From IMG/VR virus record IMGVR_UViG_3300044858_003749: a DNA stretch of 64,000 nucleotides; one strand, written 5' to 3'. This document shows, piece by piece, positions 26,101-43,968 of this stretch (within the stretch, counting starts at the first letter, position 1; every line of letters starts with the position of its first letter). The notes under the pieces were generated by a model that did no database searches, had not been told where the DNA came from, and saw nothing but the letters and a program-made list of their open reading frames with translations. Both the position numbers and the translations under genes were made by a program. This DNA comes from a virus (Duplodnaviria; Heunggongvirae; Uroviricota; Caudoviricetes).

Positions 26101-27789
26101 AAAGAACAGAACTCCTTAACAAAGGAAACCAAGTATAAAATAGATAAAGACTTTAATCATGGTTATGAGGTTGTAAATATCATTTCAAATTCTTCTGGTA
26201 TTGCTCATACTTTTACTACCGGAACAACCCACAACCTCAGAGGTATAACAAATCTATCACTTCTTACCGCTGGTAGTAATTATATTCCAGGGACTTATTA
26301 TGCTGCTAATGTGTTAGCCCAAGAGGGAACCGGAAGAAATGCTAATGCGAGAATTACTGTAAATGGTAGTGGCTTTGTTAGTGGACTCCAAATTATGGAT
26401 GGTGGTGCGGCCTATTGTGTTGGTGATGTTGCTAATCTAGTTCCTGTTGCGGGAATTGGAACAACAACCGGCTTTGTTCCTGCTACTATTATTGTAACAA
26501 GTGTAAATGATAATCTGAATGATACTTTCTATTTTAATAATAGCACCACACCATTTAGAATCACTGCCGTTGAGGATCATAATAAAATTCAGGTTTCGTC
26601 TGCTACAACCGCAGTAGGATTGGATAATGGTGATATTACACCCTCAGGTAAGGCTATTTCAATAACAACCTTTAGTTATTCTCCAACCACTGGTATAGCA
26701 ACGGCAATTTGCTCTGGTTCACATGGATTCCAGGTTAATGAAACCACAATTTTAGGTGGATTTGATTCTGAATTTTATAACAAACAAGTTCTAATTAAAC
26801 AAGTTCCTGATATCACGTCTATTATTGTGGATCTAGGTAAAAATACAACTTCTCCGGTAACTACTGGAACTCCGTTTGTCTATCCGACATTGACGGCAAA
26901 TCACGGAAAAGTCTTGTATCCTTATGGTGGTATAAGTGCAACACTAGCGTCACAATTAACTTCAGAGTCTACTTCTGATGTATTAACAATTGCCAACGCT
27001 GTGAGTCTCGGTCTTATTATTGGGGATTTTGTTAAAGTTGACGATGAGGTATTCAGAATTAAATCCGATATCACATCTAATAATATTTCTGTCTTCCGCG
27101 CCCAACTGGGTACTAAGAAACAAACTCACCCAATTAATTCGGTTGTCAGAAAAATCAAAGTTACTCCCGTTGAATTAAGAAAGAGTTCTAGCATTAGGGC
27201 TTCTGCTCATACTTTTGAATCAGTTGGTTTTGGTCCTGGTAACTATTCAACGGCTCTCCCAGAGAGACAGACTATAACGATAACAACAAAAGAAAAAAAT
27301 CTGGCACATAGCTTTAAGACAAATTCTGGAGTTATTAATTATAGTGCTAATGATGAAAATGGTGATCTTTACACAACCAATAAGAAAACTTATGCTCATA
27401 CCGGAGTTGAAGAAGTTTATGAATCTCCAATTTCTAATATTCTAGGTGATCCGAAAACAAATGATCTCCTCACCAGTAGTAATGTTATTGTAAATAATAC
27501 CATTAAGATTTCTGGTGGATCTGAAGGCGATTTATTATCTGAGATTTATGGCCCTCTTGTTTTGAATAATAAGCTAACTTCTTATTCAGATAAGGGTATT
27601 GAGGCTCCTTGTTTTCTCATTCAAGGTCAAGAGTCAACATCCAGAAAAATTGGTGTTGGTTCAACTACTCCGACTTCTGGTGGTTATGGAGATATTATCT
27701 TCAACAGTAAGCCAAAAAATGGTGGATATATTGGTTGGTCTTATACCGTTGACAATAGATGGATTGGTTTTGGTAAAATCGGTTCTTAA
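23122..27789 (+). CDS. very large structural protein (tail-fibre or baseplate-associated)
   Basis: 1555 aa, Ser/Thr/Asn/Gly-rich with many beta-strand-like repeats. Confidence 0.6.
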   Translation: MSLTRLENFLRSVKGSTIYVNSDSLDSTDSIENTGSSLTRPFKTIQRALIEAVRYSYRAGLDNDRFGKTTIIVYPGEYDIDNRPGVLIKDDGSLLYRNSLTASLPEWNLSSNFDIYNQNNELYKLNSIHGGVFIPRGATLWAYDLRKTIIRPLYVPSPTNNSIEESSVFRLTGASLPERFTFLDSNPNGSCYKDYTSNKFAPIFSHHKLHCYLNADGVNDVVVNDDFLNVTTTRTDLEMYYEKISLVYGESSGREIQDVIYSPNLSLDLEPIIDEIRIVGSKGKEVGITTIRSGDGVTPSTTITVFVSEELTDVSVDTPIQISGVGQAGYDGQFVVYNVISSSQLEYKTSIVPTVASPSTVGSTLNIVVDSVTSASPYIKTNTLRSVYGMCGYKADGNVVSGFKSAVVSEFTGISVQKDDNAFVKYDSVSGTYRDSTTVPNLHKDPRARYKPEYEHYHLKFINNAFGEVVSSFAIGMANQYVVESGGDITITASKSDFGAKALVSDGFKKEAFTQDDQGYFVGFVPPKIVGTNTFNVEFYSVDVGLTTSVANNTRLYISEAKNIDSPPIHLVDGYRFGANSNEILGVELSNGTTVGIYTAKVLQPNSATSSEKSYTVARINNNTENSITNNTFNLNSPHNIVTGEKIRVVSENGHLPDGLISHRVGYAITTGLPATRIKIAETFNNALSNNAITINRKGGNLSIVSKVSDKLPGEAGHPIQWDSTNNNWYVNVDSTNSVYSQLNTLGVSVLGSSTPRSFISRTTDSRSDEDKIFKIQYVIPSNTNVSGRPPLESYVIQESNDVLLDSTEIVKYFSDSVSTLNNVSELRNYHYISNVTWDSGFATVWTETPHNLSIGTKIESINVIEGEYLVSGIVDDKKFTVPLSTNPGTFNVDTTQRNQNLPYFKKLETANTYQIYKVNEVQEYIYNKQDGVYEFIVVNTSNSPTVSPFQGLKFSQPIENLYPQLDRDNVESDPDSALCFALPDKIGEVVINKEQNSLTKETKYKIDKDFNHGYEVVNIISNSSGIAHTFTTGTTHNLRGITNLSLLTAGSNYIPGTYYAANVLAQEGTGRNANARITVNGSGFVSGLQIMDGGAAYCVGDVANLVPVAGIGTTTGFVPATIIVTSVNDNLNDTFYFNNSTTPFRITAVEDHNKIQVSSATTAVGLDNGDITPSGKAISITTFSYSPTTGIATAICSGSHGFQVNETTILGGFDSEFYNKQVLIKQVPDITSIIVDLGKNTTSPVTTGTPFVYPTLTANHGKVLYPYGGISATLASQLTSESTSDVLTIANAVSLGLIIGDFVKVDDEVFRIKSDITSNNISVFRAQLGTKKQTHPINSVVRKIKVTPVELRKSSSIRASAHTFESVGFGPGNYSTALPERQTITITTKEKNLAHSFKTNSGVINYSANDENGDLYTTNKKTYAHTGVEEVYESPISNILGDPKTNDLLTSSNVIVNNTIKISGGSEGDLLSEIYGPLVLNNKLTSYSDKGIEAPCFLIQGQESTSRKIGVGSTTPTSGGYGDIIFNSKPKNGGYIGWSYTVDNRWIGFGKIGS

Positions 27790-27790
27790 T

Positions 27791-27798
27791 TATAAATA
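27791..27798 (+). promoter_or_regulatory. T4-type late promoter TATAAATA
   Basis: An exact TATAAATA 30 nt upstream of the 27828 ATG. Confidence 0.5.
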
Positions 27799-27827
27799 AT
27801 AAAAAGAGTGGATAGGGAAACTCTATT

Positions 27828-29993
27828 ATGGCAAATAATAATTTTGTTGTAAAGAACGGAATTGAAGTAGCAAATAAGTTACTTTATGCTGATTCTATTA
27901 CCAATAGAGTTGGTATTGGAACTTCAACTCCGACTGTGGAATTGGATGTTGCTGGTGATGTTAGACTAGACAATCTAACTATTTCTGAGATTTTATCGTT
28001 ATATGGTAATGTCCGGCTTAATGGTCAACTAGGTTCGGAAGGGGATATTTTATCCGTAACTGGTACTGGTGTTACCTGGCGCCCAGCACCAGGATTGAGA
28101 AGTCTTGCTAGTTTTAATGCAACTCAAGATCAGTTTATTTTTAACGTTCTTTATACACCAGCCAATGGTGTTGATGTTTTCTTAAACGGTGCTAGATTAT
28201 CAGCTAGTGATTATGTTGCAAGTAACGGAACAACTGTAGAATTAATTGTTCCTTGTTATGCCGGGGATAAGGTAGACATTGTTTCCTACTCAGTTTTCGG
28301 TGAATCAAATCCTGGTATAACGATTAAAGAAAATTCGGTCGCTGTTGGTTCTAATAATGCTATCAACGAAATCAACTTTGTTGGCTTCACAAGTGTATCT
28401 TTAAGCAGTAGTGGTCTGGGTATTAGTGTATTCAGTAATTTTTATGAATTTGATAATATAGATCTGACTGGTAAGCTAGCTTTCTATGAAGATACTCCTA
28501 ACTGCCCAAATTATATCGGGTTTCAGGCTCCTTCAGCATTTACTACATCAACCACATATACTCTTCCAACAGCCTATCCACCTGATCCTGGAATGGTATT
28601 ATCGTCAAATACCGTTGGTATTCTGACTTGGGTTACTGGCGTTGGTGGCAGCAGTGGTGGTGCATTTAGTTACATTAACGTTGATAATATTACGTCAACA
28701 AATTTAACATCCCACCCCAGTTTAACTTCAGCTAATCACAACTTTTTTGTTGGCAGCAATAGCGGCACATCTATTACTTCTGGTGATGATAATACTTTTA
28801 TTGGTCGGGATTCAGGAAGAACTAATACAATTGGTGCCCAAAACGTTTTTATTGGTTATGAAGCGGGAAGATCTAACATTGATGGGGGATCTAACGTTTT
28901 TATTGGTCGCGGGGCGGGTTATTCTAACAATTACGCATATTCCAATGTTTTTATTGGTGATCAAGCAGGAAGAAGTAATACAGTTGGAAACAATAACGTA
29001 TTTCTAGGTTTTTATGCTGGTAATGGTAATGTGGGAGGTGAACATAATGTTTTTACCGGAACCTACGCAGGCACGAGTGTTGCTAGTGGTTCATATAATA
29101 TTATGTCTGGATATCTAGCTGGAAGAGAGTCTACTGGTTCTAATAACATTTTTCTTGGAGCTTCTGCTGGTTCCAATCATATATCTGGGGATTATAATAT
29201 AGCTATTGGCCCTGCTGCCGGAGGAAAGGGTGGATCATTCAATATTGCTATGGGGTCGGATGCTGGGCAGAATAATATAGGAACTCGGAATATCTTCATA
29301 GGTGAAGACTCTGGTTTGCGGAATACAACGGGTAATTATAATAGTTTTTATGGTAGAAACTCTGGCAGTGAAAATAAGACTGGTTCTAGTAACATTTGTA
29401 TTGGTGATTTTTCTGGTTGGAATAATATTAGTGGTAATCAGAATCTTTATCTTGGTGCTTCTTCGGGTGTTTCCACTAACGCTTCGTATAAAGTAATCAT
29501 AGGTAATGGTAGATATCTAGACCAAGCGAATCCTTTTGATTCCCCAAGTACAACCAAAGATTTACAATTAGCCATCGGTATGAGAACCGATACTAATGCC
29601 AGTAAGTATTGGATAGTTGGTGATGAGAATTTCAACATTGGTATCGGAACAACTGCCCCAACTTCTAAATTAGATGTTATTGGAATCACAAGACTTCAAG
29701 ATAATGTTACAATTGGTTCTGGTTCTACAATGTTAGGATCCAGACTAACTGTTAATGGAAATTCTAATTTTCTTGGTATAGCAACTATTGGTATTGGATC
29801 TACTGTTGGTGCGCCAACATTAGATGTTCGTGGTAATGCTAGTATTAGTGGTATTGTTACTGTTGGATTGGGAACTACTTCTAGCCCGTCTAATTCTTCT
29901 ATGAGTTTTGAGCTTACAACAAATACATCTTTGATTATAAAAGTCAGAGGAACTGATGGTGTTCTTAGAAGTACAACTCTCACATTAGCATAA
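27828..29993 (+). CDS. tail-fibre protein with tandem ~15-aa beta-helix repeats
   Basis: 721 aa. About 14 consecutive repeats of the form 'N-FIG--AG--NT-G' between roughly aa 300 and 520. Confidence 0.6.
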   Translation: MANNNFVVKNGIEVANKLLYADSITNRVGIGTSTPTVELDVAGDVRLDNLTISEILSLYGNVRLNGQLGSEGDILSVTGTGVTWRPAPGLRSLASFNATQDQFIFNVLYTPANGVDVFLNGARLSASDYVASNGTTVELIVPCYAGDKVDIVSYSVFGESNPGITIKENSVAVGSNNAINEINFVGFTSVSLSSSGLGISVFSNFYEFDNIDLTGKLAFYEDTPNCPNYIGFQAPSAFTTSTTYTLPTAYPPDPGMVLSSNTVGILTWVTGVGGSSGGAFSYINVDNITSTNLTSHPSLTSANHNFFVGSNSGTSITSGDDNTFIGRDSGRTNTIGAQNVFIGYEAGRSNIDGGSNVFIGRGAGYSNNYAYSNVFIGDQAGRSNTVGNNNVFLGFYAGNGNVGGEHNVFTGTYAGTSVASGSYNIMSGYLAGRESTGSNNIFLGASAGSNHISGDYNIAIGPAAGGKGGSFNIAMGSDAGQNNIGTRNIFIGEDSGLRNTTGNYNSFYGRNSGSENKTGSSNICIGDFSGWNNISGNQNLYLGASSGVSTNASYKVIIGNGRYLDQANPFDSPSTTKDLQLAIGMRTDTNASKYWIVGDENFNIGIGTTAPTSKLDVIGITRLQDNVTIGSGSTMLGSRLTVNGNSNFLGIATIGIGSTVGAPTLDVRGNASISGIVTVGLGTTSSPSNSSMSFELTTNTSLIIKVRGTDGVLRSTTLTLA

Positions 29994-30001
29994 AATAACC
30001 A

Positions 30002-31396
30002 ATGACCTATCCTAACAGAGAACTATCACAGTTTGCATCATTTTTAAAAGTTAATGATGTAAATCAAAAAATAGCAATAACAACCTCAGCAACCCCTTAT
30101 ATTGGTATTGGTTTAACTAATCCTTCTGAAAAGTTAGAAGTATTGGGTAACATAAAAGCCAGTGGTGTTGTGAGCGCAACTCAATATTTTGGTGATGGAA
30201 GTTCTTTGAGCAATGTAACTGCTATTGTGAATGGATATTTTGTTAATACTGTATCTGGTATTTGGACTGGATCCAGTGTCGGAATTGGAACTACACTTTT
30301 TCCTAATAAGTTAAATGTTAATGGAAATGTTGGTGGATTTATTTTTTACTCTAATGCGCCGATTGGAACTGCACCTCTTAATGTTCAATCAACAACGAGA
30401 GTTAATAATCTCAATGTTCAATTTTTAGATGGTCTATCCGCACCTTCTAGTAATATTGTCGGTGAGTCTGATGTTCAAACTCTGGAGAATAAGACTCTTG
30501 TTCAGCCTGATATATCCATAATTAAAAATGGTTCGGCTAGTTTAACGGTGCCATCCACATCTGGCACTTTAATTAGTTCTGGATCTAGTGGTATTATTAC
30601 CAGTGGAATGTATGCAAGTGGAAGTATAAACGATTCTGTTATTTCTGTTGGCGCTGGAATTTCTTATGCTAAATTAAATCTAGGTAGTGCTATTAAGTCT
30701 TCTGATATTGATCCGAATAACAGAATTCAAAATAATAAGTTAGTAAATAGTACGATCTCTGGAGTTTCTCTTGGTAGTAATTTATTAAATTTAGTTGCTG
30801 GTAGTTATATTGACGGTGGTTCTTATAATGGCTCAGGTATTGTTACTTTTTCCATTCGGGCTAGTGTTGATAATGTTGCGAATACTCTTGTTGCTAGAGA
30901 TGCAAATGGTAATGTAAATATTCAGGGTGCTAATTTTAACGGATCTATTCCTATTGGTGGAATTATTATGTGGAGTGGTGCGACTGTTCCTTCTAGTTGG
31001 GCATTATGTAATGGTGCTACTGTTAATGGTGTTGCGACTCCAGATTTAAGAGATCGTTTTATTGTTGGTTCAGGTTCTGCTTATAACATTGGTAACACTG
31101 GTGGTGCGAATGCCGTTACTTTGAGTATAGCTCAGATGCCGGCACACGCTCATGGCGGAGTGACTAACACCGATTTTCCAGATCACACACATAACGTTTC
31201 ATTCCAAACAGAAAATGTGCCGAAGAACCCAGGCCAAACATCGGTTATAACACCTAAACCTAATCTCAATTTCACTGTCGGGAGCAGCGGAGCCACATCT
31301 AGACACCAACACTCAATTAGCGCCGAGGGTGGTTCCAGCGCACATGAAAACCGTCCACCATATTATGCTTTGGCTTTTATTATGCGAGTTCAATAA
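30002..31396 (+). CDS. tail-fibre protein with a C-terminal phage tail-collar domain
   Basis: C-terminal 'GGIIMWSGATVPSSWALCNGATVNGVATPDLRDRFIVGSG' matches the tail-collar pattern (G.I..W.G...P.GW..C.G......PDLR.RF). Confidence 0.65.
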   Translation: MTYPNRELSQFASFLKVNDVNQKIAITTSATPYIGIGLTNPSEKLEVLGNIKASGVVSATQYFGDGSSLSNVTAIVNGYFVNTVSGIWTGSSVGIGTTLFPNKLNVNGNVGGFIFYSNAPIGTAPLNVQSTTRVNNLNVQFLDGLSAPSSNIVGESDVQTLENKTLVQPDISIIKNGSASLTVPSTSGTLISSGSSGIITSGMYASGSINDSVISVGAGISYAKLNLGSAIKSSDIDPNNRIQNNKLVNSTISGVSLGSNLLNLVAGSYIDGGSYNGSGIVTFSIRASVDNVANTLVARDANGNVNIQGANFNGSIPIGGIIMWSGATVPSSWALCNGATVNGVATPDLRDRFIVGSGSAYNIGNTGGANAVTLSIAQMPAHAHGGVTNTDFPDHTHNVSFQTENVPKNPGQTSVITPKPNLNFTVGSSGATSRHQHSISAEGGSSAHENRPPYYALAFIMRVQ

Positions 31397-31960
31397 CGAA
31401 GATAAGAATCTTACCACAGAAACTCAAGACTGTCAATCCTCCGTGTGTCAATTCCAGAATCGGCATAGTGAAGGTTGACAGTTTCCCGTTTAGGGTGTAG
31501 GATCAGCCTTGTCAGCGTTGATGAACATTTACTATCTAATTAACTACTTATGAATAAAACACTAAAGATTACTAATGGTATTGAATCATTTGATATTGAA
31601 TGTACAAATAAGATTCATACTAGAGTCAGCGAAGAATGCCTACTTCAGATGACTTATAAGAACAAAATTATTCCAGAACAGGTAGTTCTACAAGTTCTGT
31701 TAGAAGAATTAAAAATTGCAAACAAAGAAGATTGGTCACTATGTATCTAATTTCAATCTGGTTTAATGTTCTAAATGGAACCTCATCCAATCATGAATTT
31801 TTTCATTTGATTAATTCTGGTTGGTTAGAGATGAAATTTATAGAAAAGTATGGAGATAATCCATCAGAAGAAGTTTACTGGGAATGGATGTATGAACATG
31901 CTGAAACAATTTATATTTCACAACAAGACTACGATTACCTAACTCGTGATGATGTTTTAA

Positions 31961-32305
31961 GTGAATAATTATTTTGTTCGTCGTCGGGTCGCATTGAATC
32001 CTAAAACATTACCAGAAATCTTAGAAGGTCTGGCTAATGATAAGGATTGGAGTGTTCGTATTGAGGTTGCAGAAAATTCCAACACACCACCAGAAACCTT
32101 AGAACGGCTGGCTGATGATGAGAGTTCTTTTGTTCGTAGCTGTGCTGTACGAAATCCCAACACACCACCAGAAACCTTAGCTCGTCTGGCTAATGATGAG
32201 GATTGGTATGTTCGTCTTGGGGTTGTAATTAATCCCAACACACCACAATACATTAGAACTTATCTTAAAATTAAAAAGCTTCTGAATTATTATGAGCAAT
32301 TATGA
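31961..32305 (+). CDS. LRV/HEAT-like repeat protein (family member A, 3 repeats)
   Basis: 26-aa repeats 'NPNTPPETLERLANDEDWYVR'. C-terminal cap 'NPNTPQYIRTYLKIKKLLNYYEQL'. Confidence 0.7.
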   Translation: MNNYFVRRRVALNPKTLPEILEGLANDKDWSVRIEVAENSNTPPETLERLADDESSFVRSCAVRNPNTPPETLARLANDEDWYVRLGVVINPNTPQYIRTYLKIKKLLNYYEQL

Positions 32306-32579
32306 GCTAGCGAGGAGTCGCAACACCACACCAGAAACATTAGAACGTCTGGCTAATGATGTGAATGCCACTGTTCGTTGTGAGGTTGCAGAAAATATCA
32401 ACACACCACAAGAAAGTTTAAAAAATCTGGCAAATGATAATAATCGGACTGTTGCGTATTATGCTAGAAATAATAAAAATTATAATAATCCAATGAAACT
32501 AGAGACCTTTGAGTTTTTTGAATGGGTGGAAAATGCAAGCATAGAAGATCTAGAGAACTTTGCAAATAAAGAATTGTGA
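32292..32579 (+). CDS. LRV/HEAT-like repeat protein (member B, 2 repeats, divergent C-terminus)
   Basis: Starts 'MSNYELA' and overlaps the stop of member A. Confidence 0.65.
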   Translation: MSNYELARSRNTTPETLERLANDVNATVRCEVAENINTPQESLKNLANDNNRTVAYYARNNKNYNNPMKLETFEFFEWVENASIEDLENFANKEL

Positions 32580-32929
32580 AAACTATTATTGCCGGATCAA
32601 GAAATTGTAATAACATAAAAGAATTAATAAAAGCTATTGAAGATTGTAATTGGGTAATAACAACAGTAATAAGTGGAAAAGCTAAGGGTGCTGATACATT
32701 AGGTGAATTGTGGGCCAAATATATGAAGGTTCCTATTATTGAATTTCCAGCCGATTGGAAAACTTATGGTAGATCCGCCGGCCCCCGTAGAAATATTCAA
32801 ATGGCAGATAATGCAGAAGCTCTTATTGCATTATGGGATGGTGAGAGTCGTGGAACAAAACACATGATAAGTGTAGCCGAAGAAAAACAACTATTGGTAC
32901 ACGTCCATAAATTCTGTTGTGACGGTTGA
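32576..32929 (+). CDS. SLOG-like (DprA/LOG/YspA-type Rossmann) small protein
   Basis: GTG start overlapping the stop of member B. Motif 'IAGSRNC...VISGKAKGADTLGELWAK...IALWDGESRGTKHM' resembles the SLOG/DUF2493 pattern. Confidence 0.45.
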   Translation: MKTIIAGSRNCNNIKELIKAIEDCNWVITTVISGKAKGADTLGELWAKYMKVPIIEFPADWKTYGRSAGPRRNIQMADNAEALIALWDGESRGTKHMISVAEEKQLLVHVHKFCCDG

Positions 32930-32998
32930 AAAACTGTCACTTCTTTTCGTTTGTGGGTGGTAATCGCTGTTATTCTATTCGGAGAGTTCACGAGAAGA

Positions 32999-33421
32999 AT
33001 GTTTTCTGAAGAAGATACTGCGCGATGTTGGGATGCACAAAATCCTAAAACCACACCAGAAACCTTAGATCGTCTGGCTAACGATAAGAGTAATCTGGTT
33101 CGTCGTAGGGTTGCAGAAAATCCCAATACACAATCAGAAACATTAGAACGTCTAGCTGATGACGACGATTATTGGGTTCGTTTTCGGGTTGCAATTAATC
33201 CCAACGCACCACCAGAAGCCTTAGAACGGCTGGCGAATGATAAGGATTCTTCTGTTCGTTGGTATATTGCAAGAAATCCTATCACACCACCAGAAGTTTT
33301 AGAACTTATGGCTAATGATAGGGATTGGGATGTTCGTTGGCAGGTTGCAAGAAATCCTAACACACCGCAATACATTATAACGTATCTTAAAATCAAGGAG
33401 TTTCTGAATTATTATGAGTAA
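32999..33421 (+). CDS. LRV/HEAT-like repeat protein (member C, 4 repeats)
   Basis: Repeats plus the 'PQYIITYLKIKEFLNYYE' cap. An alternative start is at 32951. Confidence 0.7.
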   Translation: MFSEEDTARCWDAQNPKTTPETLDRLANDKSNLVRRRVAENPNTQSETLERLADDDDYWVRFRVAINPNAPPEALERLANDKDSSVRWYIARNPITPPEVLELMANDRDWDVRWQVARNPNTPQYIITYLKIKEFLNYYE

Positions 33422-33731
33422 TTATGATCTAGCAAGAAATTCCAACACATTACCAGAAGCTTTAGATCGTCTGGCTAATGATAACGATTATTGGGTTCGT
33501 CAATATGTTGCATATAATCCATCCACGCCACCAGAAGCTTTAGAACGTCTGGCTAATGATAAGTATCCATGTATTCGTTGTGGGGTTGCATGGAATCCCA
33601 ACACACTACCAGAAATATTAGTTAATATGTCTAATGATAAGTATATTTATATTCGTAGCTGTGTTGCAAATAATCCCAGCACACCACAATACATTAGAAC
33701 ATATCTTAAACTCAACCAAAACAATTTTTGA
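33414..33731 (+). CDS. LRV/HEAT-like repeat protein (member D, 3 repeats)
   Basis: Starts 'MSNYDLA' and overlaps the 'YYE*' of member C. Confidence 0.7.
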   Translation: MSNYDLARNSNTLPEALDRLANDNDYWVRQYVAYNPSTPPEALERLANDKYPCIRCGVAWNPNTLPEILVNMSNDKYIYIRSCVANNPSTPQYIRTYLKLNQNNF

Positions 33732-33732
33732 C

Positions 33733-34986
33733 ATGTCTTTGAGCGCCATTAAACTCCGCCCACAACAGACCGAAGCTCTTGGTATTATGGAAGAGCATAA
33801 TAAAGTTCGGGTTATTGCTGCAACATCAGCGGGTAAGAGTTACATCATCTTCTTTGATATTCATAAGAAAGCGAAGAATAAAGAGAACTCTTTGTTTGTT
33901 ATCGTAAGCTCTCGTATTCTACTCCTTCAACAACTAGAGAAAGAATATTCTAAACTATTTGATAATACTCATATCGTTCATATGCACTCTGGAGAAGCCA
34001 AAAGCCGTAAGATTACAGATTATCTTGAGTTCAGTTATTGGGCAGAAGTCACCGAAGGACCTAAGATTGTTTTTGTAACTTATCATTCTCTTAAGAAGAT
34101 CGTTAAGAGTGAGATGAATATTGATGCTCTATATTTGGACGAATGCCACAATGGAGCTAAGAGTCACTTCTTTGAGTATATTAAAGGAGTTGAACCTTAT
34201 TGTAATAATCTTTACAGTTTCACCGCTGCTCCTCGTTATCATCCAGATCCTACAAAAAACGGTAACAACAACTCAGAAGTTTTTGGTAGTCAAGTTTATA
34301 ATGTTAATACTCTTGATTTGATCAAGAATGGTTCTATTCTTCCACCAAAATCCCAAACCATGAGAATTCCTTCCGTGCGGGATAAGAAGCAGAACCCTCA
34401 TGAGAGTGATTATTATACTCTTATGGACTATCTTTATAATAACGATAATACCGAGAGAGTTCTTATTACTTGCCCCTCTTCAAGATCACTTATGGATTTG
34501 ATTTGTCTTACTGATTTTTTGAAAGATTTGAATGATAGTGGTTATGATGTATTTCATATCACATCAAAATATGGTGCCTTCCATAATAAGACAAAGATTA
34601 AACGGTCAGAATTCTTGAATCGGATGGAAGAGTATGGGGAGCAAAATAAAAAATTTGTCGTTCTCCATTATAGTATCTTGACCGAAGGTTGGAGTAATAA
34701 TTCCATTCAGGCATCTATTCTCATGCGACAACAACAATTGGGTGCTACAATTCAAAATATTGGTAGGACACTACGGATTGGCCATTCAGATATTGATCGT
34801 ATTCAAAAAGGGGAGTTGACTGCTGGTGATTATGATAATTATGAAAAGCCCTGTGGTAACATAATCATTCCAGTATATGAGAACGTGGGTTCTAACATTG
34901 AAGAACAGGTAGATTTTGTTATTGACGAGGTTTTTACCAAAGGTAATTATGTTCACGATCTTATTAATGAGAAAAAGAAGTCATGA
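33733..34986 (+). CDS. SF2 DExH-box helicase / type III restriction Res-like ATPase
   Basis: Walker A 'AATSAGKS' and DECH box 'LYLDECHNGAKS'. It is inserted between LRV members D and E. Confidence 0.6.
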   Translation: MSLSAIKLRPQQTEALGIMEEHNKVRVIAATSAGKSYIIFFDIHKKAKNKENSLFVIVSSRILLLQQLEKEYSKLFDNTHIVHMHSGEAKSRKITDYLEFSYWAEVTEGPKIVFVTYHSLKKIVKSEMNIDALYLDECHNGAKSHFFEYIKGVEPYCNNLYSFTAAPRYHPDPTKNGNNNSEVFGSQVYNVNTLDLIKNGSILPPKSQTMRIPSVRDKKQNPHESDYYTLMDYLYNNDNTERVLITCPSSRSLMDLICLTDFLKDLNDSGYDVFHITSKYGAFHNKTKIKRSEFLNRMEEYGEQNKKFVVLHYSILTEGWSNNSIQASILMRQQQLGATIQNIGRTLRIGHSDIDRIQKGELTAGDYDNYEKPCGNIIIPVYENVGSNIEEQVDFVIDEVFTKGNYVHDLINEKKKS

Positions 34987-35327
34987 ATAATGAAGGATTG
35001 AAAATATTACAGGCGTCTAATACCAACACACCAACAGAAATCTTAGAACGTCTGGCTAATGATGGGGATTATTATGTTCGTTCTCGGGTTGCATCTAATC
35101 ACAACACATCACCAGAAACCTTAGAACGTCTGGCTAATGATGATTTTGTGGATGTTCTTTATTGGGTTGCAGAAAATCCCAACACTCCGTCAGAAATCTT
35201 AGAACGTTTGGCTAATGATGGTTCTTGGTTTGTTCGTTGTGGGGTTGCAAATAATCCCAATACACCTCAATACATTATAACATATCTTAAAATCAAGAAG
35301 TTTCTGAATTATTATGAGCAATTATAA
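34983..35327 (+). CDS. LRV/HEAT-like repeat protein (member E)
   Basis: ATGA overlap with the helicase stop. 3 repeats plus cap. Confidence 0.7.
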   Translation: MNNEGLKILQASNTNTPTEILERLANDGDYYVRSRVASNHNTSPETLERLANDDFVDVLYWVAENPNTPSEILERLANDGSWFVRCGVANNPNTPQYIITYLKIKKFLNYYEQL

Positions 35328-35862
35328 TCCCAACATATCACCAGAAACATTAGCTAGTCTGGCTAATAATGATTATGGGGTTGTTCGTTTTGGGGTTGCA
35401 ACAAATCCTAACACACCACCAGAAGCATTAGAACTTCTGGCGAATGATGATCATATTGATGTTCGTCGTGGGGTTGCAGTGAATCCCAACACACCACCAG
35501 AAACATTAGAACTTCTGGCTAATGATGAGAATGTTGGTGTTCGTGTGAGGGTTGCAGGAAATCTCAACACACTACCAGAAGCATTAGAACGTCTTGCTAA
35601 TGATGGCGATTATTATGTTCGTTATTGGGTTGCATCAATTACCAACACACCACCAAAAATATTAGTTATTATGGCTAACGATAAGCATTCTCATGTTCGT
35701 AGCTGTGTTGCATCTAATACCAATACACCACCAGAAGCCTTAGAACGTCTGGCTAATGATAATAATTGGCTTGTTCGTTGGCAGGTTGCATATAATCCCA
35801 ACACTCCCCAATACATTCTAACTTATCTTAAAATCAAGGAGTTTCTGAATTATTATGAGTAA
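35314..35862 (+). CDS. LRV/HEAT-like repeat protein (member F, 6 repeats)
   Basis: 182 aa of repeats plus cap. Its start overlaps the 'YYEQL*' of member E. Confidence 0.7.
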   Translation: MSNYNPNISPETLASLANNDYGVVRFGVATNPNTPPEALELLANDDHIDVRRGVAVNPNTPPETLELLANDENVGVRVRVAGNLNTLPEALERLANDGDYYVRYWVASITNTPPKILVIMANDKHSHVRSCVASNTNTPPEALERLANDNNWLVRWQVAYNPNTPQYILTYLKIKEFLNYYE

Positions 35863-35864
35863 TT

Positions 35865-36107
35865 ATGAGTAATTATGATCCCCACACATCAACAGAAACA
35901 TTAGATCGTCTGGCTAATGATGAAGATTTGGAAGTTCGTTGTCAGGTTGCACAAAATCCCAATACACCACCAGAAGCATTATCACGTCTGGCTGATGATA
36001 AGAGTTATTATGTTCGTTCTGGGGTTACATTTAATCCCAACACACCTCAATACATTCTAACTTATCTTAAAATCAAGAAGTTTCTGAATTATTATAAATT
36101 ATTATGA
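35865..36107 (+). CDS. LRV/HEAT-like repeat protein (member G, 2 repeats)
   Basis: Repeats plus cap. Confidence 0.7.
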   Translation: MSNYDPHTSTETLDRLANDEDLEVRCQVAQNPNTPPEALSRLADDKSYYVRSGVTFNPNTPQYILTYLKIKKFLNYYKLL

Positions 36108-36436
36108 CTAATTACGATATAGCAAAAAATCTCAATACATCAATAGAAACCTTAGAACGTCTGGCTAATGATGACGATTGTTGTGTTCGTTGTGGGGTTG
36201 CAGAAAATCCCAACACACCACCAGAAGCATTAGCACGTCTGGCGAATGATAATAGTTATTATGTTCGTGGCTGGGTTGCAAGAAATCCCAATACACCACC
36301 AGAAGCCTTAGAACGTCTGGCTAATGATAATAATTGGCTTGTTCGTTGGCAGGTTGCATTTAATCCCAACACCCCCCAATACATTCTAACTTATCTCAAA
36401 GTTAGACAGTTTCTGAGGTGTCACACTAGAACCTAA
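36104..36436 (+). CDS. LRV/HEAT-like repeat protein (member H, 3 repeats)
   Basis: Starts 'MTNYDIA'. Repeats plus a variant cap. Confidence 0.7.
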   Translation: MTNYDIAKNLNTSIETLERLANDDDCCVRCGVAENPNTPPEALARLANDNSYYVRGWVARNPNTPPEALERLANDNNWLVRWQVAFNPNTPQYILTYLKVRQFLRCHTRT

Positions 36437-36482
36437 AAACTCACAGGGGGTGCTATTATGGATTCATAATTCAGCTCAAACC

Positions 36483-37226
36483 ATGACCAATTACGTTTTT
36501 ATCGGAGACGTTCACTCTCAATTCTCCAAATTTTCCGCAGCGGTGGATTGGATTCAAAATAATGTGAAAGATTATCACATTATTCAAGGTGGTGATCTCT
36601 TTGATTCTAGGTCAGAGGAATCTAATTCTATGTTAGTTTATAATCTTGTTAAACTATTGGAGGATCGTATTACGGTTCTACATTCAAATCATCATATTAA
36701 ACTCTATAAGATTCTAACACAAGAAAATAATAACATGCAAAATCTGGAGAGTCTTCATAGGACTGTTATAGATTTTGATTTTGATAATAACAAAAGTCTG
36801 AAAGACGAGATCGTGAATTGGTTAGAAACCCTTCCTTACGGCGTCTCTTTTAAAGATCAGACGGGATTGGAATATAGGGCCTGCCATGCTTATTGGTTCA
36901 AAAAGCTTTATGTGCCGAATGAGTATGAAGGACTTTATCCCATTCATGAAGTTTCAGCAAAAGCCAAGGGGCAGATGTTGTATGGAATTAGCCGAAAAGG
37001 AGAAGACGGTGGAAATGAAAGGATTTTGTGGTGGAGTAATATCAATAATTCTTATTGTGGAGAGAAAGAAGAATTTGTAAGAGTTTCTTTTCATTATCAT
37101 ACAGTATCTTTGGATATTGAAGGAACTTCGGGACGAAAGCATCTGATTTTGGATGGATCTTGTGGTGACAAAGGTGGAGAATTGGTTGTCTATGATGTAA
37201 GCAATCATAGATGTGTCAGATTTTAA
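36483..37226 (+). CDS. calcineurin-like metallophosphoesterase (lambda-PPase / ApaH-like Ser/Thr phosphatase)
   Basis: Motifs 'GDVHS', 'GGDLFDSR' and 'LHSNHH' correspond to GDxHG, GDxxDRG and GNHE. Confidence 0.7.
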   Translation: MTNYVFIGDVHSQFSKFSAAVDWIQNNVKDYHIIQGGDLFDSRSEESNSMLVYNLVKLLEDRITVLHSNHHIKLYKILTQENNNMQNLESLHRTVIDFDFDNNKSLKDEIVNWLETLPYGVSFKDQTGLEYRACHAYWFKKLYVPNEYEGLYPIHEVSAKAKGQMLYGISRKGEDGGNERILWWSNINNSYCGEKEEFVRVSFHYHTVSLDIEGTSGRKHLILDGSCGDKGGELVVYDVSNHRCVRF

Positions 37227-37326
37227 AGTGGCACACCAGCAACACAAACTCTTCACTCATCGTGTTATTCTTATTGAAACTTTGGAGGACCAATGGAACT
37301 GAATGCTTTTCTGAATCAATTGATTA

Positions 37327-37584
37327 TTGATCTTGAAGATGTCTGTGATGACATTGAATTTGACTTCGGCAATAATACTGTCCCGGAAGAAAAAGTTCGC
37401 CAGATCAAAAAGGCCGTTGAGGATTTTCATAATGAAATTTAAAGTTGCTTATCAACGACCCAAAAAGAAAAAGGGTTTCTATGTCAAAGAAGAAGTTGTT
37501 TTTTATGACATTGAATCTGCTGTCTTCTATGAGTCGGAGATGACCAAACGAGGATCCAAGAACTTTAAAATTACCCCAATTTAG
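37327..37584 (+). CDS. hypothetical small protein
   Basis: 85-aa ORF. Confidence 0.3.
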   Translation: MILKMSVMTLNLTSAIILSRKKKFARSKRPLRIFIMKFKVAYQRPKKKKGFYVKEEVVFYDIESAVFYESEMTKRGSKNFKITPI

Positions 37585-37606
37585 GAGAATCTCATGACTG
37601 CTTTGG

Positions 37607-37903
37607 TTGAAACACTGTTACCTAGGATCACCAGCATTGAAGCATTTTTTTCTGATGGTGAATGGTGGGCTAGCATTCGCTATAGTGATGGAGGTGAAGA
37701 TGAGTTTGGACCTTTTGACACTAAAGAGAAAGCTGAAGGAGTTATCTTTTGATGATTTTGAATCCGCTCTTTATGTTTTTTCTGACGAATTCGGGTTTTT
37801 ATCTTCCGATCAGATGTTGATCTTGGATGTTGTATGCCTTAGTCCTCTACACGTAGAGGATTTTCTAGATATTTTTCTTTATACGAGGATATTAAATTCA
37901 TGA
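37607..37903 (+). CDS. hypothetical small protein
   Basis: 98-aa ORF. Confidence 0.3.
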   Translation: MKHCYLGSPALKHFFLMVNGGLAFAIVMEVKMSLDLLTLKRKLKELSFDDFESALYVFSDEFGFLSSDQMLILDVVCLSPLHVEDFLDIFLYTRILNS

Positions 37904-38048
37904 CTAAAATAACTACAGAACAAAAACAACAGAAGACCGAAGTAAATGAACTATCGGAAAAATTTCTAGAGTATATGGAGGATGTCATTCGTGATGACGA
38001 GGAATACGAATATCCTGAATACGATGATGCACCCTCATCTTTTTAATC

Positions 38049-38321
38049 ATGAACAGTATTGATAAAATTGTTTCTGTTGAAACAGAATATCGTCCAGGAG
38101 AAATTCCAACTCTTCGGGTTAATGTAACTGCTATTGTTGAAGATTTTGTTGTTGTCCATCAACAAACGCTAAACGATCCAGAGGAGTTAGGTCCTGCTGA
38201 ATGTTTTATGGAATTTACTGTTGATGATTATGAAGAAGATCTCGTTATGAATGAGCCAAATATTCTTGAGCTTATTGATCATTTTGGAACCGAATGGAAG
38301 CTAACCTCTTATGACGATTGA
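38049..38321 (+). CDS. hypothetical small acidic protein
   Basis: 90-aa ORF. Confidence 0.3.
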   Translation: MNSIDKIVSVETEYRPGEIPTLRVNVTAIVEDFVVVHQQTLNDPEELGPAECFMEFTVDDYEEDLVMNEPNILELIDHFGTEWKLTSYDD

Positions 38322-38340
38322 ACAACTGGCACAATACCCT

Positions 38341-38368
38341 TTGCAAACTCAGGAGAATGTGGTATGGT
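38341..38368 (+). promoter_or_regulatory. sigma70-like promoter TTGCAA-16nt-TATGGT
   Basis: Paralogous to the 1272-1300 element. The spacers 'actcagg...tgtgg' are near-identical. Confidence 0.35.
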
Positions 38369-38807
38369 AAGAAAGTCAAGTCGTAGGAGGTCTACCGATA
38401 TAACATCCCTTGCTGACTCTCTCATTGATACCGAAGTTTTTTCTTGTTACAATGAGGAACTTGATTTAGAAACACTTAAACTTTTGGAGATTTACGAAAT
38501 GCAATCTACTATGAATTCTGTTGATACTATGCCGGCCATGGGGCAACTTGATGTCGGCCCGAATAATACCTTTAGTGCTACCTTTACCGAAGAAGGAAGT
38601 AGTGCTATTCAATCTGTTTCCTATATGGGCGAAATGCTGGATGTTATCTATCGCAGCAATCCTTCCGTGATTTATCAATACACTGCAACCGAAGATACTC
38701 TTTCTGCTATTATGAAAGAAGTTCAGGCTACTCTTGTTGATGGTGAAGGATCTGTCGGCTCTATCATCTCTCGTCTAAAAAATTCCAACGCTATCCAACT
38801 TGTTTGA
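38364..38807 (+). CDS. hypothetical protein
   Basis: 147-aa ORF. Its ATG lies inside the -10-like hexamer. Confidence 0.35.
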   Translation: MVRKSSRRRSTDITSLADSLIDTEVFSCYNEELDLETLKLLEIYEMQSTMNSVDTMPAMGQLDVGPNNTFSATFTEEGSSAIQSVSYMGEMLDVIYRSNPSVIYQYTATEDTLSAIMKEVQATLVDGEGSVGSIISRLKNSNAIQLV

Positions 38808-38951
38808 TATGTACCATAAGAAAATTGAAACACAAAAAGACGCCATTGAATATCTACAAAAAGGTAAGGTGTCTAAAATTCTAGAACGACTTGACAATCT
38901 ACCTCTTATGATTGAAACTCCCGAACAAGAGGAACGAAATCCTGTTGAGGT

Positions 38952-39515
38952 TTGATTATGTCTCAACCAAGTTTTAAGGTTGGTGATATTGTTGTTTCTA
39001 AGAAAGGAACCCGCCCAGGAAAAATAATTGAAACTGATGCCTACAACTATAGCACCGACAGCTATGGATATGTAAAAGTTCAATATCTTCACAATAAAAG
39101 AACCCAACTCTTAGCAAAAGAAAACCTTGTACTTTATAATGATTCAAAAACAATGACACCAGAACAAAACACCCTTTATCAATTTAAACCTTCCGACTCT
39201 TCGGAATCCCTTTATGGGCATCACATTGGCACTAATCAACAAAGTCAATGGGTAATGGAAGAAAAAGGTACTGGGAAAATTCACGTTATTCCAAAAGAAG
39301 CTGCTGAAGAAGTTCTTCCTTTCACCTTCAGCGTAAAAATGGGGGGCACACGTCATTTTATCGCTGATCCTGACACGGTTCAAAAAGATGATATTCTTCT
39401 TTACACTGGAGGAGAATACCCAGAACTGGCTGTAGTGATTGCGACCAACACAAAAAACAAATCCGCTCAGAGTAAATTCATCGGTGTAAAATTAGTAACT
39501 ACGGAAAAATTATGA
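38952..39515 (+). CDS. hypothetical protein
   Basis: 187-aa ORF. Confidence 0.35.
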   Translation: MIMSQPSFKVGDIVVSKKGTRPGKIIETDAYNYSTDSYGYVKVQYLHNKRTQLLAKENLVLYNDSKTMTPEQNTLYQFKPSDSSESLYGHHIGTNQQSQWVMEEKGTGKIHVIPKEAAEEVLPFTFSVKMGGTRHFIADPDTVQKDDILLYTGGEYPELAVVIATNTKNKSAQSKFIGVKLVTTEKL

Positions 39516-39748
39516 TTGATTTAGAATCTGCCGATGAGGCATTCAAACTAACAGACGAGCAACTAACAGCTCTTATTATTGAGGATGTATTCCAAGGTGA
39601 TAATACAGCTAAAGAAAGTTGTCTAAAAGAACTAGCTGAGTTGAGAGGTTTAGATTACTCAAATCTAACACCCGAAGAACAGCAAAATCTTATTATTGAT
39701 AACGAAGACGATCTCTATTCCCTATCGGATCAATACAACGCTGCTTGA
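39512..39748 (+). CDS. hypothetical small acidic protein
   Basis: 78-aa ORF with a 4-nt overlap with the upstream gene. Confidence 0.3.
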   Translation: MIDLESADEAFKLTDEQLTALIIEDVFQGDNTAKESCLKELAELRGLDYSNLTPEEQQNLIIDNEDDLYSLSDQYNAA

Positions 39749-39760
39749 ACATTAATCCAC

Positions 39761-39786
39761 GGGCGTCTTTATGGCGCCCATTTTTA
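39761..39786 (+). terminator. rho-independent terminator
   Basis: Stem GGGCGTC/GGCGCCC with loop TTTAT, followed by ATTTTTA. Confidence 0.45.
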
Positions 39787-39805
39787 GCAATTTTGGGGTA
39801 CACTC

Positions 39806-39994
39806 ATGAAAACAATTTATTCACATCAAAAATGGGTTCTTTTTACACCCAGAAAAGCTACAGAGATCTCTAACCATTTGAATGAAATTCGTGAAAATGG
39901 ATTGATGTACGCTCCAAATAAAATAGGTAAAAACAAGTATGCCACGGTTGAAGTCTTTGACGAGGATGGGTATTCTTTGGGATTCTTAAATTAA
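39806..39994 (+). CDS. hypothetical small protein
   Basis: 62-aa ORF. Confidence 0.3.
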   Translation: MKTIYSHQKWVLFTPRKATEISNHLNEIRENGLMYAPNKIGKNKYATVEVFDEDGYSLGFLN

Positions 39995-39996
39995 GT

Positions 39997-40533
39997 TTGG
40001 CTATGTATGAAGATTATTCTAAAAAACAATTAGCTCTTCTGGCTAATGATAAACATTATTATGTTCGTTGTGGTGTTGCAAATAATCCCAACACACAACC
40101 AGAAACATTAGATCGTTTAGCGAACGATGAGCATCTGCATGTTCGTAGATATGTTGCACGAAATCCAAACACACCACCAGAAGCCTTAGATCGTCTGGCT
40201 AATGATGAGGATTCTTGGGTTCGTCTTGGGGTTGCAAGACATCCCAACACACCACCAGAAGTTTTAGAATGTTTGGCTAATGATAAGGATTATTCTGTTC
40301 GTTGTTGGGTTGCGAGAAATCCCAACACAACACCAGAAACCTTAGATCGTCTGGCTAATGATGAGCATTATTATGTTCGTACGCCGGTTGCATTTAATCC
40401 CAACACACCACCAAAAAGCTTAGAACGTCTGGCTAATGATGAGGATTGGTATGTTCGTTTTGGAGTTACAATAAATCCCAGCACACCTCAATACATTAAA
40501 ACCTATCTTAAAATTTTAAAATTATTCAAATGA
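39997..40533 (+). CDS. LRV/HEAT-like repeat protein (member I, 5 repeats)
   Basis: Repeats plus cap 'PQYIKTYLKILKLFK'. Confidence 0.7.
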   Translation: MAMYEDYSKKQLALLANDKHYYVRCGVANNPNTQPETLDRLANDEHLHVRRYVARNPNTPPEALDRLANDEDSWVRLGVARHPNTPPEVLECLANDKDYSVRCWVARNPNTTPETLDRLANDEHYYVRTPVAFNPNTPPKSLERLANDEDWYVRFGVTINPSTPQYIKTYLKILKLFK

Positions 40534-40737
40534 AACATTATAGCGTAGTTAGTGGGCCGGACTCTTTTGATACCGATTCCGTTGAAGAAGCCATTTCCGT
40601 TATGCAATCTATGGCAGAACATTTTGGTGGTGCTAAAGTTGTTGATAACACAACCAAAGAAATTATCTACGAAATCTAATAGACACATCCCGAACTGTCC
40701 ATTCAGACTCGTAGAGCCATTGGCTAGAGGATAAAAT

Positions 40738-41106
40738 ATGAGGAGTAAGGGTAACCCCATGAAAACTCTCAATGAAAAAGAACAAAAAGTTTTGCTTTTG
40801 GCTCTTAATCACCATCAAAAATACCATAATGACATTATCTCTCAATATTTTTTTGAGGATGATAAAAACTCGGTTGTATCGGAATCTTTTGAAAGTCTTG
40901 GGACAATTAACGATTTACACAATACTTTTTCGGGTGATTCAAATCTTCATCTTTTGAGATCAGGAGATTTAGAAAACATTGAAGCCGCTTTTACTCGTTC
41001 TGACGAGATTTATAATAATGGTGATAATGTAATCATGAAGGCCAGTCTTTATTTGGCTCTTATTGATACTATTAAGGCAATTCTGAGAAAAGATGATTGT
41101 ACTTGA
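40738..41106 (+). CDS. hypothetical protein
   Basis: 122-aa ORF. Confidence 0.35.
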   Translation: MRSKGNPMKTLNEKEQKVLLLALNHHQKYHNDIISQYFFEDDKNSVVSESFESLGTINDLHNTFSGDSNLHLLRSGDLENIEAAFTRSDEIYNNGDNVIMKASLYLALIDTIKAILRKDDCT

Positions 41107-41802: not shown

Positions 41803-41808
41803 ATTATT

Positions 41809-43963: not shown

Positions 43964-43968
43964 AAACT

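Follow-up and report, generated by a model that had tools for sequence, protein, structure and literature searches.

Tandem genes for small LRV repeat proteins form a multigene family with a homogenised framework and fast-diverging variable positions in an uncultured T4-like cyanomyovirus

The 64,000-nucleotide (nt) stretch of viral DNA analysed here (hereafter, the window; IMG/VR virus record IMGVR_UViG_3300044858_003749) carries in its second half 15 paralogous genes for short proteins built from a 26-residue repeat of the LRV (leucine-rich repeat variant) type. Open reading frame (ORF) listing and translation place all of them on the + strand; 14 are complete, one is cut by the window end, all 15 frames are intact, and the encoded proteins span 59-205 amino acids (aa). 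Eight lie inside 31961-36436, with the rest at 39997-40533, 41809-42626 (three genes), 46132-46749, 63265-63681 and 63690/63711 to the end. A first-pass annotation of this DNA had proposed about 15 such genes with roughly 49 repeat units, a common cap at the end of most genes, and conservation of the repeat at the nucleotide and not only the protein level, all of which was borne out. A hidden Markov model (HMM) of the unit, built from the window, counts 50-51 units of 26 aa; Tandem Repeats Finder recovers the 78-nt period in every LRV block; and the motif NP[NS]TPQYI..YLK closes 11 of the 14 complete genes (g02, g13 and g14 end otherwise). The 21-mer TTAGAACGTCTGGCTAATGAT, for which at least ten exact copies had been claimed, is present in 11, on the + strand only, and 43 copies are found when up to three mismatches are allowed, against 0.00 in 100 shuffles. 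Self-BLAST of the window, a comparison that the same annotation had recommended, confines all self-similarity to the LRV genes.

The layout of a typical gene is a short N-terminal cap (MSNYELA...), one to six units of 26 residues and, in those same 11 genes, a C-terminal capping helix with the consensus NPNTPQYIxTYLKIKxFLNYYE. Neighbouring LRV genes overlap stop to start (ATGAGTAA type, in the form ...TATGAGTAA...), and such overlaps are kept in both lineages compared (the window, and the relatives L005 and L006 described below) despite differing junction sequences, suggesting that adjacent LRV genes are co-translated. Programmed frameshifting, as a means of fusing adjacent LRV genes, was also considered and was set aside because the caps, ATG starts and stop/start overlaps are all kept though the junctions differ.

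While the count of eight genes in 31961-36436 stood, the continuous array first described there did not, as two unrelated + strand genes interrupt it: (i) a SLOG/YAcAr gene (32576-32929; PF10686, E 6e-13), which adjoins the arrays of L005 and L006 too, and (ii) a superfamily 2 (SF2) helicase gene (33730-34986, or from 33634). Upstream of the SLOG gene, g01 (31961-32305; 114 aa, three units and a C-cap; LRV E 3.8e-24) opens with a GTG start that overlaps the stop of the preceding ORF and is followed by g02 (32292-32579; 95 aa, two units and a non-cap C-terminal tail; LRV E 1.4e-06). Between the SLOG and helicase genes, a terminator-like hairpin (32919-32940) lies upstream of g03 (32951-33421; four units and a C-cap), whose ORF opens at TTG 32951 but whose likely start is ATG 32999 (140 aa); g04 (33414-33731; 105 aa) has three units and a degenerate cap. 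Beyond the helicase come g05 (34983-35327; 114 aa, three units and a C-cap); g06 (35314-35862; 182 aa, six units and a C-cap; LRV E 3.5e-37), with a 72-nt exact tract in common with g08; g07 (35865-36107; 80 aa, two units and a C-cap), preceded by the 10-nt slippage repeat ATTATGAGTA; and g08 (36104-36436; 110 aa, three units and a variant cap), which has a 55-nt exact tract in common with g15, 27.6 kb away.

Outside the main array, g09 (39997-40533; 178 aa, from TTG 39997 or ATG 40003; LRV E 1.5e-39) encodes six units and a C-cap and is the protein modelled below. A second cluster comprises g10 (41809-42135) and g11 (42128-42454), each of 108 aa with three units and a C-cap, and g12 (42447-42626), a minimal 59-aa member made of one unit and the cap. 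Further downstream are g13 (46132-46749; 205 aa, five units between an N-terminal extension and a C-terminal NPNY tail; LRV E 5e-33), g14 (63265-63681; 138 aa, three units and an NPNY tail) and the truncated g15 (63690-64000, starting at ATG 63690 or 63711), with at least three to four units. Together with 32292-32579 (g02) and an L005 gene at 19427-20038, g13 and g14 make up a second LRV subfamily that lacks the usual cap and has NPNY followed by a helical tail of ~35 aa instead; g13 and its L005 counterpart also have the N-terminal extension in common, and their orthology looks more stable than that of the cap-type genes.

Profile searches place these proteins in a known family. In a Pfam scan that covered four multi-unit members (g01, g06, g09, g13) and g02, LRV (PF01816) scored 83.8-132.1 bits for the former and 28.7 bits for the latter, against a gathering cut-off of 21.6 (E 1.4e-06 to 1.5e-39), and LRV_2 also matched the four multi-unit proteins. 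The LRV half of the first-pass LRV/HEAT assignment is thus upheld, and for the HEAT half the scores were mixed: HEAT_2 was at or below its cut-off in most scanned members, and HEAT (PF02985) reached 33.6-41.4 bits as whole-protein sums (cut-off 23.5) with no single stretch at E <= 0.01. In the PDB, a single-sequence search with g09 returned 1LRV, the LRV protein of Azotobacter vinelandii, as the sole significant relative (E 6e-10). A profile search returned 1LRV again (E 7e-19), followed only by the LRV-derived 23-residue peptide 6hqe (E 0.007), with the alignment to PP2A-A no better than marginal (E 0.16-0.6).

Modelling of g09 with AlphaFold2 from a 30-sequence alignment agrees with this assignment and with the solenoid that the first-pass annotation expected. 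The model is confident (predicted local distance difference test score, pLDDT, 97; predicted template modelling score, pTM, 0.90) and depicts a regular solenoid with two helices per repeat, in which unit positions 6-12 form helix A and positions 18-26 form helix B, alternating 7- and 9-residue helices, and in which the cap is a longer C-terminal helix. A Foldseek search with this model places 1LRV at the top of the PDB matches (E 3e-06, TM-score 0.68); the highest TM-scores (0.75-0.80) belong to artificial alphaRep HEAT-like binders, followed by designed armadillo proteins and the PP2A-A scaffold. Against a viral structure library, the top hits are proteins of uncultured Caudovirales automatically annotated 'Leucine rich repeat variant', at 32-36% identity. 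Taken together, these searches show the genes to be a true multigene family of LRV proteins, for which an alpha-solenoid fold is predicted.

It could be asked whether such proteins are instead HEAT-type phycobilisome factors (NblB-like or CpcE/F lyase-like) that remodel host light harvesting. Both NblB and CpcE/F consist of HEAT-like repeats, the phage falls within the cyanomyovirus group (see below), and generic HEAT models do exceed their cut-off as whole-protein sums. This is nonetheless highly improbable: the PBS-lyase HEAT-like Pfam family, which the first-pass annotation had also named, is unlisted for g06 and g09 even at E <= 10, and membership in it was rejected on that basis; the best relatives of the phage proteins are LRV proteins of many non-photosynthetic lineages; and a single conserved target would not account for at least 15 diversified paralogues.

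Within the unit, per-position entropy separates seven variable positions (16-19, 22, 23 and 26; 2.2-3.5 bits) from the other 19, which are mostly at or below ~1 bit and never above 1.9 bits, nine of them being nearly invariant. Variable positions 18, 19, 22, 23 and 26 follow an i, i+1, i+4, i+5, i+8 spacing on helix B and thus fall on a single face of that helix, opposite the conserved V20, R21, V24 and A25. As judged from helical periodicity and by analogy, stacking of the repeats would align these faces into a stripe rich in W, Y, R and C. Enrichment on the helix-B face amounts to 11.7-fold for W, 12.1-fold for C, 4.4-fold for Y and 2.6-fold for R, with depletion of K, A, D, T, I and V, a bias unlike that expected from drift in an AT-rich genome. 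The positions randomised in the alphaRep library (18, 19, 22, 23, 26 and 30) were picked for their natural variability; they sit on the concave face that binds, and alphaRep binders with a single internal repeat are stable (PMC3754942). By this analogy, the variable face of the phage proteins would be the concave, alphaRep-equivalent one.

The codons behind the variable face form a set that recurs in L003 (a further relative, described below), L005 and L006. In the window and in all three relatives, unit positions 18, 19 and 22 are occupied mostly by TGT and its single-step neighbours TAT, TCT, TGG, CGT, GGT and TTT, such that single nucleotide changes lead from one to another among Y, S, C, W, R, G and F. 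A diversity-generating retroelement was examined as a source of this variation and set aside: no reverse transcriptase match was obtained among the ~45 window ORFs scanned, which are part of the window's ORFs, and the codon pattern does not fit, as the variable codons are mostly TGT, TAT, TCT, TGG and CGT and not the AAY typical of such elements. Moreover, the variation is spread among ~50 paralogous units rather than seen in a pair of template repeat and variable repeat.

The composition of the proteins also bears on whether they bind nucleic acids, in the manner of AlkC/AlkD-like HEAT repeats or as ligands of tRNA or other RNA, in the service of translation and RNA-repair genes. Several features of the neighbourhood are compatible with such a role, namely tRNA-Met, tRNA-Pro, lysyl- and cysteinyl-tRNA synthetase (LysRS, CysRS) and Thg1 genes in the window, an RNA ligase and a CCA-adding-type enzyme beside the LRV genes of L003, fusions to ribbon-helix-helix (RHH) or helix-turn-helix (HTH) domains in some homologues, and the label 'AlkC' that the Joint Genome Institute (JGI) attaches to two homologues. 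The 'AlkC' names are, however, automatic labels, and the LRV proteins have no Pfam match to AlkC/AlkD or any other DNA-binding HEAT family. Only two of the 15 proteins are basic; the other thirteen range from acidic to near neutral (pI 4.6-6.6, net charge down to -7). The variable face is rich in aromatic residues and Cys but depleted of Lys. On balance we consider nucleic-acid binding quite unlikely.

Two IMG/VR contigs, L005 (125 kb) and L006 (179.5 kb), encode orthologues of the helicase at 71% identity and are syntenic with window positions 30000-46700. In both, LRV genes fill the same inter-gene gaps as in the window, with differing numbers of genes and units; the gaps between conserved genes that LRV genes occupy ('slots') number six or more. 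Slot A, before the SLOG gene, holds two genes in the window and none in L005 or L006. Slot B, from SLOG to helicase, holds two in the window (4 + 3 units) and one of 4 units in each relative, whereas slot C, from helicase to phosphoesterase, holds four in the window (3 + 6 + 2 + 3) and two in each relative (5 + 4 in L005; 7 + 4 in L006). Slot D, before the ORF at 40530, has one gene in the window (6 units), one in L005 (2) and two in L006 (3 + 6), and slot E, after the ORF at 41440, has three (3 + 3 + 1), one (5) and one (3), respectively. The backbones of L005 and L006 are 89-94% identical, yet their arrays differ by one two-unit insertion of 156 nt, which includes two identical consecutive units, and by one whole-gene insertion of ~600 nt. 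Rapid change of gene and unit number between relatives is thus shown, in line with the expansion and contraction put forward in the first-pass annotation, and the fixed single copies in relatives that would have spoken for an ordinary conserved gene were not found. In phage B3, where the helicase, phosphoesterase and Band-7 neighbourhood is present, there is no LRV unit at that place.

Alongside this turnover, the framework of the unit carries a genome-specific signature. All units of L005 and L006 read ...PK(A/V)LEQLATD... where those of the window read ...PE(T/A)LERLAND..., and the caps differ by genome too. Synonymous codons at fixed unit positions are likewise specific to the genome: for the window versus L005/L006, they are CCC versus CCA at Pro2, TTA (50 of 50 units) versus CTA at Leu9, CTG (7% background use) versus CTA at Leu12, GCT versus GCG at Ala13 and GTT versus GTA at Val24. 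The proportion of synonymous differences (pS) in the framework is 0.21 within the window, 0.50 between the window and L005/L006, and 0.25 between the window and L003. Because the slots are syntenic, they were most likely already occupied in the common ancestor; states shared genome-wide across ancestral slots then require homogenisation among the slots. Genes up to 27.6 kb apart are linked by exact tracts of 72, 55, 54 and 40 nt, some of which run across variable codons. On the evidence of these sequences, the LRV framework is shown to be homogenised at the DNA level within each genome, i.e., to undergo concerted evolution. Of the ongoing gene conversion claimed in the first-pass annotation, it is this homogenisation that stands; the mechanism is probably gene conversion or repeated replacement.

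Almost all units nevertheless keep a set of variable codons of their own, and these codons diverge rapidly. Between L005 and L006, single-copy neighbouring genes have a proportion of nonsynonymous differences (pN) of 0.011-0.025 and a pS of 0.07-0.14, whereas LRV genes in the same slots have a pN of 0.08-0.25, rising to 0.18-0.57 at variable codons; the LRV genes thus diverge 4-20 times faster than their neighbours, with the proviso that these rates come from few sites and that some differences are unit replacements, not point changes. The clearest orthologous pair, that of slot C2, shows a pN/pS of 2.2 for variable codons against 0.23 for the framework. Only a tail-fibre-like gene diverges as fast as the LRV genes in this comparison (pN 0.20). 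In these alignments, divergence is shown to be both fast and concentrated at the variable positions of the unit.

Rapid change of this kind might also arise if the family were a largely neutral or selfish expansion, in which phage recombination spreads the 78-nt repeat, the variable sites are unconstrained, and the proteins have one generic function or none. Within the window, pN/pS at variable codons is 1.4-1.65, a value near saturation and compatible with relaxed constraint; copy number varies freely among close relatives; and the LRV proteins are without any functional annotation. Set against this are the 15 intact frames out of 15, the conserved caps and stop/start overlaps, and the retention of slots in both lineages. 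The variable sites, moreover, favour W, C, Y and R rather than the K, N, I and L expected from drift at 36% GC (G+C content), this bias recurs in independent lineages, and the unsaturated comparison separates variable codons from framework by the pN/pS values just given. We therefore regard neutral expansion as unlikely.

The family has a distinctive distribution. Only two of 50,697 deposited phages have any LRV relative (Moorella phage MTATph1 and Vibrio phage vB_VmeM-32), and the inspected locus in Moorella phage MTATph1 is a single LRV gene (327 aa) with no array. Conversely, a degenerate DNA motif scan of IMG/VR detected 94 stretches on ~57 contigs, nearly all with a GC content of 0.33-0.40, and in the retrieved parts of the two syntenic relatives, 91 units in at least 22 genes were counted for one and 68 units in at least 20 genes for the other. 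Cultured phages therefore almost entirely lack the family, whereas it typifies an uncultured lineage of ~57 IMG/VR contigs; the first-pass remark that such a repertoire is unusual for a T4-like phage applies to the former and not to the latter. In L003 (ENA KRAE22-1 scaffold_3, 244,048 bp), 13 LRV ORF segments lie within 21 kb. There, at 5185-19269, LRV genes are interspersed with genes for ClpS, an AAA_33 kinase, an RNA ligase, ThiF and a PolyA_pol/CCA-type nucleotidyltransferase, a mix indicating that the family reaches genome regions outside those covered by the window. Among reference bacteria and archaea, the same repeat is scattered, usually as a single gene, through Calothrix, Rivularia, Obscuribacterales, Mucispirillum, Zoogloeaceae, Actinomycetota and others, and true arrays occur in only a few genomes, such as a betaproteobacterial contig. 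The latter (Betaproteobacteria bacterium MS502-43, BNUB01000003.1; GC 60%, cellular or binned; loci L057 and L092) has a dense array of the 26-residue type, with 8 segments/31 units and 5 segments/15 units in two 8-kb stretches, and is one of the few arrays beyond the phage lineage.

The genome itself (window GC of 36%) is that of a T4-like myovirus, with PHROG matches to a gp32-type single-stranded DNA-binding protein, a gp5-type hub with lysozyme, baseplate wedge, tail tube cap and long tail fibres. No DNA-level match emerged when 20 kb of the window was compared by megablast with the 50,697 deposited phage genomes, and an assembly index queried for the exact g06 sequence does not contain it, so that collection lacks this genome. 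At the protein level, gp32 is closest to that of the freshwater Synechococcus phages B3 and B23 (54% identity), which have a GC content of 34.8% and genomes of ~244 kb (PMC7171214), and all 419 of the 419 phage records that match the SF2 helicase inside the main array are cyanophages. T4-type core genes are thus accompanied by nearest relatives that are cyanomyoviral (Kyanoviridae-like), and the source, going by its gene content, is an uncultured T4-like cyanomyovirus, distantly related to phages B3 and B23. Scans for promoter-like sites (63 in the window versus 53 +/- 7 in shuffles) and terminator-like sites (11 versus 9.8 +/- 3.4) were uninformative.

Position within this genome is central to whether the LRV proteins are virion-associated, e.g., as tail-fibre accessories, adaptors or decorations whose variable face binds the host surface and whose speed of change reflects receptor recognition. 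A tail-fibre module (23122-31396, from PHROG tail-fibre matches) ends ~560 bp upstream of the main LRV array, the LRV genes roughly match the tail-fibre-like gene in speed of divergence when L005 is compared with L006, and a Y/W/R-rich variable surface would suit binding of any kind. Most copies, however, sit among replication, nucleotide-metabolism and small early-type genes (helicase, phosphoesterase, deaminase, Thg1 and DNA ligase). The LRV proteins also have no structural PHROG match and no attachment domain in common with structural proteins, inspection of their translations found no hydrophobic, signal-like N-terminus, and a 59-aa single-unit member is hard to picture as a fibre component. 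A virion role therefore seems improbable to us.

Other features of the window lie apart from the LRV family. Two full-length aminoacyl-tRNA synthetases, a class of gene that is rare in phages, are encoded at 51826-53313 and 60887-62236; the matches are to lysine--tRNA ligase (NCBIfam lysS_bact, 638.8 bits; cut-off 427.6) and cysteine--tRNA ligase (NCBIfam cysS, 522.4 bits; cut-off 340). A Thg1-like tRNA-His guanylyltransferase (44781-45551; Pfam E 1e-26) and genes for tRNA-Met(CAT) and tRNA-Pro(TGG) (48960-49033 and 55560-55631) are also present; the latter tRNA reads CCA, the codon that predominates for Pro at two positions of each LRV unit, though any connection would be speculation. A nicotinamide phosphoribosyltransferase (57518-59869; 783 aa) has its catalytic domain in two stretches, and the insert at about residues 298-615 matches PHROGs of ribonucleotide reductase (RNR), ThyX and PhoH proteins and looks like an intein or homing-endonuclease insertion; an NMNAT-NUDIX (NadR-like) gene (55702-56760) completes the nicotinamide adenine dinucleotide (NAD) salvage pair. 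The DUF2828/DUF7788 protein at 47203-48666 (487 aa) is TROVE/Ro-like and matches PHROG 850 'RNA-binding protein' (E 1e-145). Two consecutive genes at 11501-14203 and 14200-16932, of ~900 aa each, have tape-measure/tail PHROG matches over a common central segment, which suggests duplication of a large tail protein. Finally, the SPFH/Band-7 protein at 43154-43963 (Pfam E 4e-20) is 67% identical to that of Synechococcus phage B3, whereas the neighbouring helicase is only 32% identical.

Considering the above, we propose that the LRV proteins constitute a diversified repertoire of intracellular protein binders acting at the phage-host interface, a reading to which we assign a probability of about 0.5. 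In this scheme, (i) 78-nt units and whole gene cassettes would be gained and lost through unequal recombination, (ii) adjacent overlapping genes would be made as co-translated sets, and (iii) the framework is homogenised across all slots while the variable codons stay different and diverge fast. The resulting cytoplasmic binders would be aimed at variable host factors, with host takeover or counter-defence affording the most plausible targets, and would be the natural equivalents of alphaRep or DARPin binders; the ankyrin gene families found in large eukaryotic viruses offer another parallel. A more specific version we hold only tentatively: a freshwater T4-like cyanophage lineage may keep in its genome a combinatorial library of binders in mini-solenoid form, each genome having at least 20 genes and 70-90 units. 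Uniformity of the scaffold would be due to recombination, and selection would see to it that a W/Y/R/C-rich, paratope-like face differs from unit to unit. The products would serve to neutralise or hijack variable host factors such as defence systems, and the library would be the phage equivalent of the repertoires of variable-repeat binders in eukaryotic viruses and in protein engineering.

Several observations weigh against this interpretation. With respect to mechanism, the signal of whole-unit copying is weak (four unit pairs have the same codons at positions 16-19 versus 0.5 expected, with 5 of 1000 shuffles reaching four), and the Val24 codon has been made uniform although the variable codons on either side of it have not, a pattern that simple conversion tracts fail to account for. 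With respect to selection, the near-saturated pN/pS within the window leaves positive selection and relaxed constraint inseparable, while the unsaturated L005/L006 comparison rests on few sites. As for the surface, the concavity of the variable face is taken from alphaRep and HEAT proteins rather than measured on coordinates, and enrichment of Cys is odd for a binding surface. PADLOC (only E 0.003-0.007, with no passing stretch) and NCBIfam give the LRV proteins no significant match, so that they hit no model for toxins, defence or anti-defence. The arrays have SLOG, helicase, phosphoesterase, deaminase, Band-7 and Thg1 genes as neighbours, and no toxin domains were found beside them in Pfam, PHROG or PADLOC, which does not fit the cassettes of polymorphic-toxin immunity or decoy genes. 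The searchable literature, in turn, holds nothing relevant on LRV proteins in phages or on phage repeat-protein multigene families.

Comparison with known systems helps to define what the proposed binder repertoire would have in common with them. By its profile score the A. vinelandii protein 1LRV falls in the same repeat family; it also heads the structural matches and has the same LA.D....VR..VA core. However, its repeat is 24 residues long as opposed to 26 in the phage proteins (with their NPNTPP turn), and the latter are much smaller than its 244-residue chain, have their own N- and C-caps and lack its additional N-terminal domain, which binds an Fe-S cluster. It is also encoded by one gene, whereas the phage has at least 15 paralogues per genome. 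AlphaRep proteins (3LTJ, 4XL5, 6BZX; PMC3754942) are likewise capped, two-helix repeat proteins with the same i, i+1, i+4, i+5, i+8 variable pattern on one helix, and the stability of single-repeat alphaRep binders makes LRV members of 59-80 aa plausible. They are, however, engineered from another natural HEAT-like subgroup, with a 31-residue repeat and 21-24% identity; the likeness drawn here is one of spacing, and the phage LRV proteins are putative binders. The ankyrin-type families of poxviruses and amoebal giant viruses (PMC5753266) similarly comprise many paralogues of variable copy number with a presumed host-interface role, but differ in repeat type, host domain and size, the phage LRV proteins being tiny and without F-box or other effector domains.

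Phage LRV proteins already on record, namely those of uncultured Caudovirales in BFVD/UniProt, Moorella phage MTATph1 CDS0161, Vibrio phage vB_VmeM-32 and PHROG 20647, share the fold and domain (Foldseek E 2e-11 to 6e-08; PHROG E 7e-09 to 3e-13) but are only 26-38% identical to the window family, with tblastn identities of 38% and 29% for the relatives in MTATph1 and vB_VmeM-32, respectively, and all are automatic annotations. Each gene described here is thus a new member of a known family whose domain had already been auto-annotated in a few uncultured phage proteins. Three aspects appear to be new, as the literature searched holds nothing on them: how large the family is for a phage, how its genes are arranged in conserved slots, and how scaffold homogenisation is combined with surface diversification.

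Ultimately, if the proposed repertoire of binders is real, this would be, as far as we have found, the first described bacteriophage with a large, fast-evolving multigene family of repeat binders; poxviruses and giant viruses have comparable families, which are not known in phages. The repertoire would afford phages a new way to track host diversity, beside tail-fibre variation, and would represent a natural, evolution-tested minimal binder scaffold with a 26-residue unit and members down to 59 aa. It would also provide a testable role for the LRV domain, the structure of which has been known since 1997 but the function of which has not. The data themselves constitute a clean case of concerted evolution of a scaffold alongside diversification of its surface within one viral genome.

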